64,000 bases of DNA from an uncultured Planctomycetaceae bacterium (lineage in GTDB: Bacteria > Planctomycetota > Phycisphaerae > SM23-33). The stretch covers positions 2,693 to 66,692 of the forward strand of contig CAYQJH010000002.1 of the NCBI GenBank assembly GCA_964417755.1, in the 5' to 3' direction. Shown here piece by piece: positions 53,294 to 54,889 of the stretch. Numbering within the stretch: position 1 is the stretch's first letter; the number at the start of each line of letters is the position of its first letter. A model generated the notes under the pieces. The model was not told the origin of the DNA and did not search any database. It was given only the letters and a program-made list of their open reading frames with translations. The position numbers and the translations under genes are program-made.

Positions 53294-54889
53294 ATGGCGG
53301 AAGAACAGGAGCAAACGGACATCATGAACCAGATCAACAAATGCTCCCAGTGCGGGGCGGAGCTGCCAGCCAGCGTCCCGCGCGGCCTGTGCCCGGCCTG
53401 CCTGCTGAAGTGCGGGCTGGAAACTAATACCGTCGGCTTTACCGGGCAAGACCCAGCCGAGGCAGCCGGGCGAGGTGCGCGGCACGCCGCCAGTTGGACG
53501 CCGCCGACGTGCGATCAGCTTGCGCCGCTGTTTCCTGAGCTGGACATACTGGAGCTGATTGGGCGGGGCGGCATGGGCGCGGTGTACAAGGCCCGCGAGA
53601 AGCAGCTTGACCGCCTGGTGGCGCTGAAGATTCTGCCTCCGGAGATCGGGCGCGATGAGGCCTTCGCCCAGCGCTTCGCCCGCGAGGCGCAGGCGATGGC
53701 CAGGCTCAGCCATCCCAACATCGTCACGATCCACAGCTTCGGTTCACGCGGTAGTGGTAGAAGTGGTAGCACAGGCTTTCCAGCCTGTGAGACAGACAAT
53801 CCGGCTGTGCCGCAACTGTACTTCTTCATCATGGAGTATGTGGACGGCCTGTCTTTGCGGCAGCTGCTGGACGCCGGAACCATCAACCCCAAAGAAGCAC
53901 TGGCCATCGTGCCGCAGATATGCGACGCCCTCCAGTATGCGCACGACCGCGGCATCGTCCACCGCGACATCAAGCCGGAGAACATCCTGCTCAATCGCGA
54001 GGGCAAGGTGAAGATCGCCGACTTCGGCCTGGCAAAACTGGTGGGCTGTGGCGCGGGCGTCCCGCCCGCGAGTGGCGAGGCCGTCTCGGCCTCGCAGGAC
54101 CAGCAACACCGCGAGCAAGATGCTCGCGGCACGCGCGGACAGGATGTCCGCGCCACGCAAAGCATCATGGGCACGCCGCAGTACATGGCCCCGGAGCAGA
54201 TCGACCGCCCGGGGGCGGTCGACCACCGGGCCGACATCTACTCTCTCGGCGTGGTGTTCTACCAGATGCTCACGGGCGAGCTGCCAAAGGCTGCGCCCGG
54301 CCAGCAGGGCATTATGTTCGAGCCGCCCAGCCGCAAGGTGCTCATCGACGTCCGCCTGGACGAGGTGGTTCTCCGAGCCCTGGAGCGCGAACCCGCCCGC
54401 CGATACCAGCAGGTAAGCGAGGTAAGAACGCAGGTAGAGACGATTGTTTCATCGCCACCAGTCCAGCGTTCTGATGCAGAGTGTGGGCAGGTTAGGGTCG
54501 TTCCTGTTGAGACTTGGCACAGGTACGTTGCTGTTGTAGGACGTAGAGGAGGCAAGGCGGTCATCAATTGGCGCGGGGTGATTATTGACGGTCTTGTCAT
54601 GGCTTATGTGTTTGCGCTCGGTGTGGCGATTGCCCATGTCTTGAATCCCCGCCGCGATATATATGTCTGGCAGGCGCTGCTGGCTGGACTGGCGATAGTC
54701 TCGGTCATTCCCATAGCAATCTTCATCGGGCTCAGGCGGCCAATTGACAGGCTCACGCCACTGGATCCTTTGCCACGGATGGCCTCGCCTCCAGAGGCCT
54801 CTGCCGCCGAGCCGCGTCTATCGCGGCTTGCAATCATCGGTGCGATTTGGGCGTGCATTGGGCTATTGGGTCTCTCACTGATCGCGTGA
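53294..54889 (+). CDS. Serine/threonine protein kinase with N-terminal zinc ribbon and C-terminal TM segments
   Basis: CSQCG...CPAC zinc ribbon, GRGGMGAVYKA, VALK, HRDIKPENILL, DFG and APE. Two in-frame insertions of hairpin DNA: 53745-53830 and 54051-54155. Confidence 0.85.
   Translation: MAEEQEQTDIMNQINKCSQCGAELPASVPRGLCPACLLKCGLETNTVGFTGQDPAEAAGRGARHAASWTPPTCDQLAPLFPELDILELIGRGGMGAVYKAREKQLDRLVALKILPPEIGRDEAFAQRFAREAQAMARLSHPNIVTIHSFGSRGSGRSGSTGFPACETDNPAVPQLYFFIMEYVDGLSLRQLLDAGTINPKEALAIVPQICDALQYAHDRGIVHRDIKPENILLNREGKVKIADFGLAKLVGCGAGVPPASGEAVSASQDQQHREQDARGTRGQDVRATQSIMGTPQYMAPEQIDRPGAVDHRADIYSLGVVFYQMLTGELPKAAPGQQGIMFEPPSRKVLIDVRLDEVVLRALEREPARRYQQVSEVRTQVETIVSSPPVQRSDAECGQVRVVPVETWHRYVAVVGRRGGKAVINWRGVIIDGLVMAYVFALGVAIAHVLNPRRDIYVWQALLAGLAIVSVIPIAIFIGLRRPIDRLTPLDPLPRMASPPEASAAEPRLSRLAIIGAIWACIGLLGLSLIA
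54051..54155 (+). repeat. A-family composite hairpin repeat inserted in-frame in the kinase activation loop
   Basis: Four consecutive hairpin modules (GCGCGGGCGTCCCGCCCGCG, CGAGGCCGTCTCGGCCTCG, CGCGAGCAAGATGCTCGCG, GCGCGGACAGGATGTCCGCGC). They encode about 27 extra residues between DFG and APE. Confidence 0.7.

Follow-up and report, generated by a model that had tools for sequence, protein, structure and literature searches.

The window analysed here, a stretch of 64,000 nucleotides from an uncultured Planctomycetaceae bacterium, contains a gene for a Ser/Thr protein kinase whose activation segment includes a cluster of four short, hairpin-forming units of the repetitive extragenic palindrome (REP) type. 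The encoded protein carries an N-terminal CxxC motif, followed by the kinase domain and a C-terminal membrane region. In a profile search, its open reading frame (ORF) matched PF00069 with E=1.4e-49 and 169 bits (cutoff 31.7), and the catalytic motifs were complete in the translation, namely GxGxxG (GRGGMGAV), VALK, HRD (HRDIKPEN), DFG and APE. With a Pkinase domain and these motifs, the protein is a Hanks-type Ser/Thr kinase. The query kinase has no protein-database entry of its own, and its nearest proteins come from metagenome-assembled genomes (MAGs) of Phycisphaerae and Planctomycetaceae; P0001 is 71–77% identical over 96% of the query length. The features are collected in Table 1.

The activation segment begins at D243 of DFG (nt 54020) and ends at E301 of APE (nt 54196). 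A sequence-only reading of this DNA had placed 53 residues between these motifs, and the translation bore out this count. It had also described four consecutive hairpin modules lying in frame without a stop or frameshift. The number of modules and the intact frame were confirmed, and the kinase sequence downstream of the insert is still conserved with homologues; the first two modules, however, are opposite in orientation to the last two and are separated from them by 15 nt. Four perfect inverted repeats were found in the segment (54052–70, 54075–95, 54109–29 and 54133–53), with stems of 8–9 bp and loops of 3 nt throughout (TCC, TCT, AGA and GGA). Folding of the 126-nt kinase stretch gave −85.2 kcal/mol, with z=−7.1 against dinucleotide shuffles, and in the predicted fold units 1 and 4 pair mutually to form an imperfect large inverted repeat. 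The unit period of 24 nt corresponds to eight codons, and all six frames of the 120-nt element are free of stop codons. Unit 4 and its flank encode A-T-Q-S immediately ahead of the conserved IMGTP; as this unit and its flank recur in the window at 50236–68, the Thr-Gln-Ser codons belong to the element itself. In an AlphaFold2 model of residues 60–400, kinase residues 252–288 (model residues 193–229), which correspond to the insert, had a predicted local distance difference test score (pLDDT) below 50 and no secondary structure, so that the disordered loop raised as a check was indeed what the model returned. The N-lobe was modelled confidently, with pLDDT above 90.

The hairpins of the kinase belong to a family that is dispersed over the window and is referred to below as A-type. 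The window contains 19 hairpins whose stem measures 8 bp or more and whose loop is RGA or TCY, compared with 0.12 expected from Markov-2 simulations, and the cluster in the kinase is real and well beyond chance. After common orientation, the units follow one template: the stem, YRCRGRCR, is 8 bp long, its complementary arm follows an RGA loop, and the 3′ tag is NYAC (5′-GTGG, GTGT, GTAC or GTGC on the opposite strand); tandem units are spaced at 24 nt. All four kinase units fit this template. By short-word blastn, unit 1 with its GTGG tag was equal to 50022–45 at 23 of 24 positions, and unit 2 had no close copy in the window. Unit 3 agreed with 57836–54 at 17 of 19 positions, the differences being a compensatory pair. 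Unit 4 agreed with 63925–52 at 26 of 28 positions, where both differences again form one compensatory pair, and together with CACGCAAAGC it agreed with 50236–68 at 28 of 33 positions. The description of the repeat as intergenic in type was thus upheld by the template and by these close matches. Of the 12-mers in the query insert, 8 of 106 were found in the rest of the window, and the control was no lower; this sharing is low because the stems have diverged, and membership had to be established by short-word blastn.

To describe the stems, units were anchored by the inner four base pairs, the loop and the tag alone, in the window and in all fetched loci, which gave 68 anchored units, 20 of them in the window. 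The outer four stem positions were Watson–Crick in 86% of cells, compared with 47% when partners were shuffled, and each outer position used two or three Watson–Crick pair types. The window repeat family is defined by structure. The arrangement reverse, reverse, spacer, forward, forward was found at 29787, 40756 and 54052. The intervals 29787–29829 and 40756–40798, 11 kb apart, are identical over their left 43 nt (two reverse units and the GTAC spacer), and their right halves differ.

Clusters other than that of the kinase lie between ORFs or in one doubtful N-terminal extension. The longest threonyl-tRNA synthetase ORF (44743–46860, minus strand) has A-type units (46783–46830) inside its opening ~26 codons. 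As the TGS domain of this protein begins only at residue 41, its true start is probably downstream, and these units would then be 5′-untranslated or intergenic. A lone A-type unit (3095–3113) was seen inside an imperfect CAACGG/CAACAA microsatellite-like tract at 3020–3185, with two genes flanking. In addition, a repeat of 48–58 nt is present in three copies of about 91% identity (40834–40891, 43947–44004 and, in reverse, 57742–57789). It resembles an A-type stem, CGCGGGCA...TGCCCGCG, in which the loop is replaced by ~40 nt with CTACGTAGC and GTAGC motifs; a nested element and a family member with a long loop are both conceivable.

Table 1. Features of the kinase locus and repeat clusters elsewhere in the window (nucleotide positions of the window).
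Feature	Position	Strand	Basis or remark
Hanks-type Ser/Thr kinase gene, 531 aa	53294..54889	+	ORF list and PF00069 profile match
Activation segment, DFG to APE, 59 residues inclusive	54020..54196	+	translation
REP cluster, translated as C252-S290 (CGAGVPPASGEAVSASQDQQHREQDARGTRGQDVRATQS)	54047..54163		two reverse units, 15-nt spacer, two forward units, 3′ flank
Unit 1, CGCGGGCG-TCC-CGCCCGCG	54052..54070	-	tag TGTGG at 54047-51 (+ strand)
Unit 2, CGAGGCCG-TCT-CGGCCTCG	54076..54094	-	tag AGTGG at 54071-75
15-nt spacer CAGGACCAGCAACAC (QDQQH) between reverse and forward pairs	54095..54109		sequence
Unit 3, CGCGAGCA-AGA-TGCTCGCG, tag GCACG	54110..54128	+	sequence
Unit 4, CGCGGACA-GGA-TGTCCGCG, tag CCACG, element flank CAAAGC	54134..54163	+	sequence
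Second repeat-derived insert, beta4-beta5 loop (SRGSGRSGSTGFPACETDNPAVPQ)	53745..53810	+	sequence
ECF-type (extracytoplasmic function) sigma factor gene, immediately upstream of kinase	52372..53268	+	Sigma70_r2 and r4_2 matches
Intergenic cluster: two reverse units, 15-nt spacer, two forward units	29787..29887		layout and spacer length as in kinase
Intergenic cluster, both reverse units identical to those at 29787-29829	40756..40833		sequence
Intergenic copies: best unit 1 match 50022-45; forward dimer 50215-57 with CACGCAAAGC flank	50022..50268	
Intergenic forward dimer, convergent genes on either side	57812..57854	+
Intergenic forward dimer	61492..61534	+
Intergenic reverse dimer, best unit 4 match	63930..63973	-

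The history of the segment was examined in the nearest relatives. L079 (80% identical to the query over residues 1–254), P0001, L068 and L075 (72%), and L004 and L006 (about 70%) carry the loop LVGLTAAGA..EAGSPGAPGVTQAGEKVMGTP, in which the family hairpins are absent. Thus, the kinase cluster is derived in the query lineage, and the alignment with orthologues proposed earlier as a check gave a lineage-specific cluster that the closest relatives (72–80% identity) lack. The basal loop of the family measures 30–33 aa, that of the nearest orthologues 45–50 aa and that of the query 59 aa. An excess of ~27 codons had been claimed, with a quoted peptide of 37 aa; the figure holds approximately over the basal loop (~26 codons), but the excess over the nearest orthologues is only 9–14 codons. 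The element replaced nearly all of an older, lineage-specific loop extension, and was not a plain insertion of 27 codons. The conserved AGSPGAPG of this older extension (..EAGSPGAPGVTQ..) in L079, L006, L004 and L003 (e.g., L006 1933–2067) is encoded by an 8-bp inverted repeat, GCCGGGAG N8 CTCCCGGC, and the extension may itself be a relic of an earlier palindromic insertion.

Repeats in the same loop were also found in other kinases of the family, which was covered in Planctomycetota and Verrucomicrobiota. A-type units occupy the equivalent site in L001/P0008 (four units), L027 (three) and L065 (five), as well as in P0011/P0013 and P0010, and GTGG stands directly 5′ of unit 1 both in the query and in L001. 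On the L001 contig, 34 of 121 insert 12-mers recurred elsewhere, compared with 5 of 589 in the control. The loop was also hit independently. Units of A-like sequence (AGETPAPR) are present in L077 and L074 in another reading phase and at another point of the loop, with the ancestral VTQPGERVMGTP kept. Other loops carry unrelated elements: a B-type dimer in L009, a canonical GTAG..CTAC REP dimer in L143 at 2039–2113 (peptide ..GRAGSPLPAAG..GAHGVTRPT..; P0077, JGI metagenome contig Ga0395676_006127), a 77-nt element with perfect 25-bp arms in L145 at 4983–5059 (peptide ..GERSNLCQAP..GQIGPLPF..; P0081, Thermoguttaceae MAG) and tandem GGCCAGTGG repeats in L144. Loops of at least 45 aa occur in 75 of 119 homologues. 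In the 29 distinct long loops with available DNA, perfect inverted repeats with stems of at least 8 bp reached 11.6 per kb, compared with 1.4 per kb in the flanking kinase-domain DNA; at least one was present in 18 of these 29 loops and none in the short loops. The metagenome contigs L079, L109, L110, L111 and L118 stop at or within the activation-loop region, which suggests that repeat-laden kinase loops break short-read assemblies.

The behaviour of such copies could be followed in two comparisons. In the case of L001 and L002 (MAGs GCA_039680605.1 and GCA_021372275.1), 13.3 kb aligned with 0 mismatches and two length differences. The first is a 129-nt in-frame cluster of four units in the kinase (L001 6672–6800 versus L002 6672), bounded by the 7-nt direct repeat CATGGGC, and the second is a 107-nt intergenic tandem duplication (L001 9419–9525). 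This pair shows that loop copies are unstable. Its reading as a fresh insertion was rejected, as the L002 loop, at 21 aa the shortest of all, has lost the hydrophobic residue ahead of MGTP; deletion between the CATGGGC repeats is likelier. The second comparison is the orthologous insert of L001 and L027, in which amino-acid identity is 84% and third-position identity 90%, compared with 91% and 79% in the kinase domain. Its 8 substitutions are distributed evenly among the three positions of the codon, and only 1 lies in a stem, at the terminal pair. The orthologous copy is thus without amino-acid constraint, the opposite of the conservation that the sequence-only reading had named as counting against it, and although the sample is small the substitution pattern points to preservation at the nucleotide and not the protein level. 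An ancient loop kept at the amino-acid level was considered and ruled out by the nearest-relative loops together with these substitutions.

A second insert lies in the beta4–beta5 loop of the same kinase and was modelled as coil. It contains an exact GTAG-tagged hairpin, CACAGGCT-TTCC-AGCCTGTG, at 53770–89 (B-type), together with a partner arm, GGCTGTGCC, that has decayed, and is preceded by GGTAG three times (GGTAGTGGTAGAAGTGGTAG). P0001, L079 and the other nearest relatives lack the insert, and the loop is short there. Besides the dimer in L009, the B-type hairpin was found between genes in L001, at window 7231 and, encoding TGFPACE, in P0004. In L065, L109, L074 and L077, units lie upstream of the activation loop within the kinase gene, at approximately the beta4–beta5 position. 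The modestly new observation is that palindromic repeats of unrelated kinds have landed repeatedly in both of these surface loops across the ECF-linked kinase family. The pairing with the sigma factor recurs as well, a Sigma70_r2 gene adjoining the kinase in L143, L144 and L145. Elsewhere in the window, a bacterial large signal recognition particle RNA was detected at 22185–22467 (+) with 157 bits.

We consider it very probable that a REP cluster, selfish or recombinogenic, entered a permissive kinase loop and is translated as a disordered linker. Four REP-type units, a dimer of dimers resembling bacterial interspersed mosaic elements (BIMEs) or hairpin-forming REP doublets (REPINs), belong to the genome's own dispersed, mostly intergenic family. 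They would have entered the variable part of the activation segment in the query lineage, displacing most of the older extension. The cluster would persist by virtue of three properties: a stop is lacking in all six frames, the period of 24 nt and the net change in length are each divisible by three, and the tolerant site appears to be a surface-exposed disordered loop between the conserved anchors 'DFGLAKLVG' and 'MGTPxYMAPE'. It would be transcribed and translated as ordinary coding sequence into a Gly/Arg/Asp/Ala-rich linker, and the copies would afterwards gain or lose units and decay. We infer that it arrived by single-strand transposition of the type performed by REP-associated tyrosine transposases (RAYTs), beside a GTGG-like tag, or by microhomology recombination or template switching, and that the kinase tolerates it almost neutrally. 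The earlier proposal of a repeat inserted and tolerated by the loop accordingly stands as to the derived, in-frame and modelled disordered state of the segment, but not as to a simple insertion, an older extension having been replaced.

Several observations weigh against this explanation. No transposition event was observed, no target-site duplication was visible at 54047/54163, and no RAYT or Y1 transposase was found among the 10 REP-adjacent ORFs of the window. A clean empty site for the query copy was not found either, the best match in genome and metagenome scans being 80% identical. As the ancestral loop was replaced, a single insertion does not suffice; two or more events, or a replacement by recombination, must be assumed. 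The four kinase stems are perfect, yet three are unlike every other copy in the window; this could mean that the cluster arrived very recently, that intrastrand template switching has corrected the stems, or that the hairpins are under selection. Finally, the right junction A-T-[QR]-x-[VI]-M-G-T-P is common to the query, L001, L027, L065, L007 and P0011 and sets an element-encoded threonine five residues ahead of the conserved GT, which could point to a preferred site or to a functional need, as opposed to neutrality.

The last point also speaks for functional co-option, in which the repeat segment would be a working part of the activation loop through a phospho-acceptor threonine, loop length or charge. 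In its favour, the remainder of the kinase is intact, with conserved sequence downstream of the insert, and extended loops are common among the relatives. Nevertheless, we regard it as unlikely. The amino-acid identity of the orthologous insert is below that of the domain and its substitutions are indifferent to codon position, unrelated repeats with unrelated peptides sit at the equivalent site, a strain variant (L002) lacks the entire segment, and basal family members work with loops of 30–33 aa. The term 'domesticated' used in the earlier reading is accordingly not retained, as a gain of function is not supported. The corollary that repeat turnover is a source of adaptive variation in an expanded kinase family seems just as doubtful. 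A further speculation, quite improbable in our judgement, is that both kinase loops are preferred and reused landing pads, that repeat turnover drives heritable and fast-changing variation in kinase regulation, and that the hairpins are kept for their mobility or deletability. If true, it would give a signalling family a mechanism of switching or diversification driven by repeats, acting through loop length, charge and a phospho-acceptor threonine supplied by the REP tag.

A role of the nucleic acid itself was also considered, in which the hairpins act on the mRNA (stability, processing or ribosome pausing) or on the DNA (as a site for RAYT, gyrase or a nucleoid protein), or in which the segment is removed from the transcript. 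Such a role would explain the four perfect stems with compensatory differences from other copies, the strong fold, and the stems kept in L001 and L027 while loops and spacers change. However, the stem preservation rests on 8 substitutions and could also be given by quasi-palindrome correction, copies decay in other lineages (L007), the beta4–beta5 partner arm has decayed, and the L001/L002 strain pair differs by presence versus absence. At the kinase site, neither an Rfam family nor a terminator-like signal was found, which speaks against the removal or regulation at the RNA level that had been suggested, and we know of no mechanism by which such a segment would be excised from a bacterial mRNA. 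Altogether, a nucleic-acid role has very little probability. Misassembly of a repeat cluster into the kinase is very improbable, for although repeats are classic misassembly sites and the contigs of the relatives L079, L109, L110 and L111 end at or in the loop, the junctions are in frame with the gene conserved on both sides, independent assemblies carry the family at the equivalent site (L001, L027, L065 and P0011/P0013), and three of the four units occur only once in the window, leaving no local copy to borrow from.

With a translated REP cluster preferred on these grounds, the locus is a case of REP-type selfish repeats being carried and translated inside the core regulatory element of a signalling enzyme. 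It had been called rare. This was not sustained, as a 2013 catalogue for Opitutus terrae already lists translated REPs inside genes that bear these peptide signatures (Di Nocera, De Gregorio and Rocco 2013, BMC Genomics 14:522, PMC3733652), and many of the extended loops among the kinase relatives are palindrome-encoded. The locus is a new example of a known phenomenon, reveals no new mechanism, and extends that catalogue from Verrucomicrobiota to a Planctomycetota lineage. Many kinase 'low-complexity inserts' in these phyla are repeat-derived, which bears on annotation, alignment, structure prediction and contig breaks in MAGs. The loops, from 21 to 79 residues, also provide a natural variant series for probing activation-loop tolerance.

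The locus was finally compared with known systems. Among the papers searched, none was found to deal with REPs in the activation loop of a kinase. In replication slippage, palindromes stimulate deletion between short direct repeats, and the exact 129-nt difference between L001 and L002, with CATGGGC around a strongly hairpin-forming segment, resembles this process; slippage accounts for the turnover of copies and not for their origin. REPINs, BIMEs and RAYT transposases were reportedly described by Bertels and Rainey in 2011 and Nunvar et al. in 2010. In REPINs and BIMEs, inverted REP pairs with a short spacer can form a larger hairpin. The window family shares the inverted units with a short spacer, the pairing of units 1 and 4, and a dispersed, multi-copy distribution, but the query cluster is a pair of tandem dimers and not a single doublet, and the mobility of the window family is putative. 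Miniature inverted-repeat transposable elements have terminal inverted repeats of 15–30 bp and a target-site duplication. The query cluster forms an imperfect large inverted repeat, and a 7-nt direct repeat bounds the L001 copy, but this direct repeat takes in the conserved MG codons and would be explained just as well by slippage deletion. Rickettsia palindromic elements (RPEs) are said to lie in frame in genes that are still functional, usually in surface loops, as described by Ogata et al. in Science in 2000. They measure about 100–150 bp and are restricted to Rickettsia. The likeness to RPEs lies in palindromic repeats held in frame in working genes, whereas RPEs are longer, carry a CGTC tag (PMC3733652) and show no sequence relationship to the window units. 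The terminal tags of the window are NYAC/GTRN, and CGTC appears only where stem and loop adjoin in the units that have a TCY loop, so the window units fall outside the CGTC-tagged class.

The closest resemblance is to the REPs of O. terrae. REPs were divided into GTAG- and CGTC-tagged superfamilies, and intragenic REPs were reported to be most numerous in O. terrae and Rickettsia conorii (the RPEs), with over half of them being dimers or groups that encode 20–30 residues (PMC3733652). GTAG-type REPs measure 20–40 bp, with a stem of 6–9 bp and a GTAG tag or the degenerate forms GYAG, GYRG, GTRG, GTMG and GTGG, and are linked to a RAYT gene, an IS200/IS605-like tyrosine transposase with REPs on its flanks (PMC3733652). 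The window units are 19-nt hairpins, 24 nt with the tag, with perfect stems of 8–9 bp and 3-nt loops; they are multi-copy, dispersed and mainly intergenic, pair in opposite orientation and form sub-families by compensatory stem changes. Their tag is canonical only in part, as GTGG is among the published degenerate tags and GTGT, GTGC and GTAC are not; an exact GTAG is carried by the B-type hairpin at 53770.

In O. terrae, REPs lie in frame in about 70 genes, and its GTAG-19 repeats encode GTGVPPV, HGRDARAT, HGQDARAT and TGGTPVP, with dimers of the form 'GTGVPPV-spacer-HGRDARAT' such as GTGVPPVMADQPHGRDARAT (Oter_1564) and GTGVPPVDSGSASDDHGRDARAT (uvrA, Oter_3168) (PMC3733652 Additional file 3). 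The window units encode peptides of the GxGVPPx and xGxDARxT types (GAGVPPA, EQDARGT and GQDVRAT), L001 encodes TGVPPV and HGRDARAT, and L077 encodes AGETPAP. The two systems agree in the stem-loop with a tetranucleotide tag, the mostly intergenic location, the pairs in opposite orientation, the in-frame gene copies and the encoded peptides; the match is at the peptide level only. The dimers of Oter_1564 and uvrA even share the reverse-spacer-forward layout and the phase of the query kinase. Unlike O. terrae, which belongs to Verrucomicrobiota, the host here is a planctomycete, Phycisphaerae-like by best matches; the window stems are lineage-specific (CGCGGGCG, CGAGGGCA and TGCAGGCG), and the tag is degenerate (GTGG, GTGT, GTAC or GTGC). 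A Ser/Thr kinase, Oter_3506, is one of the GTAG-19 hosts, with units at residues 625–640, outside the kinase domain (PMC3733652), whereas the query cluster has four units and lies in the activation loop. Judged by these sequence features, the window family is a GTAG-19-like REP, and the carriage of such repeats in frame is an already established phenomenon.

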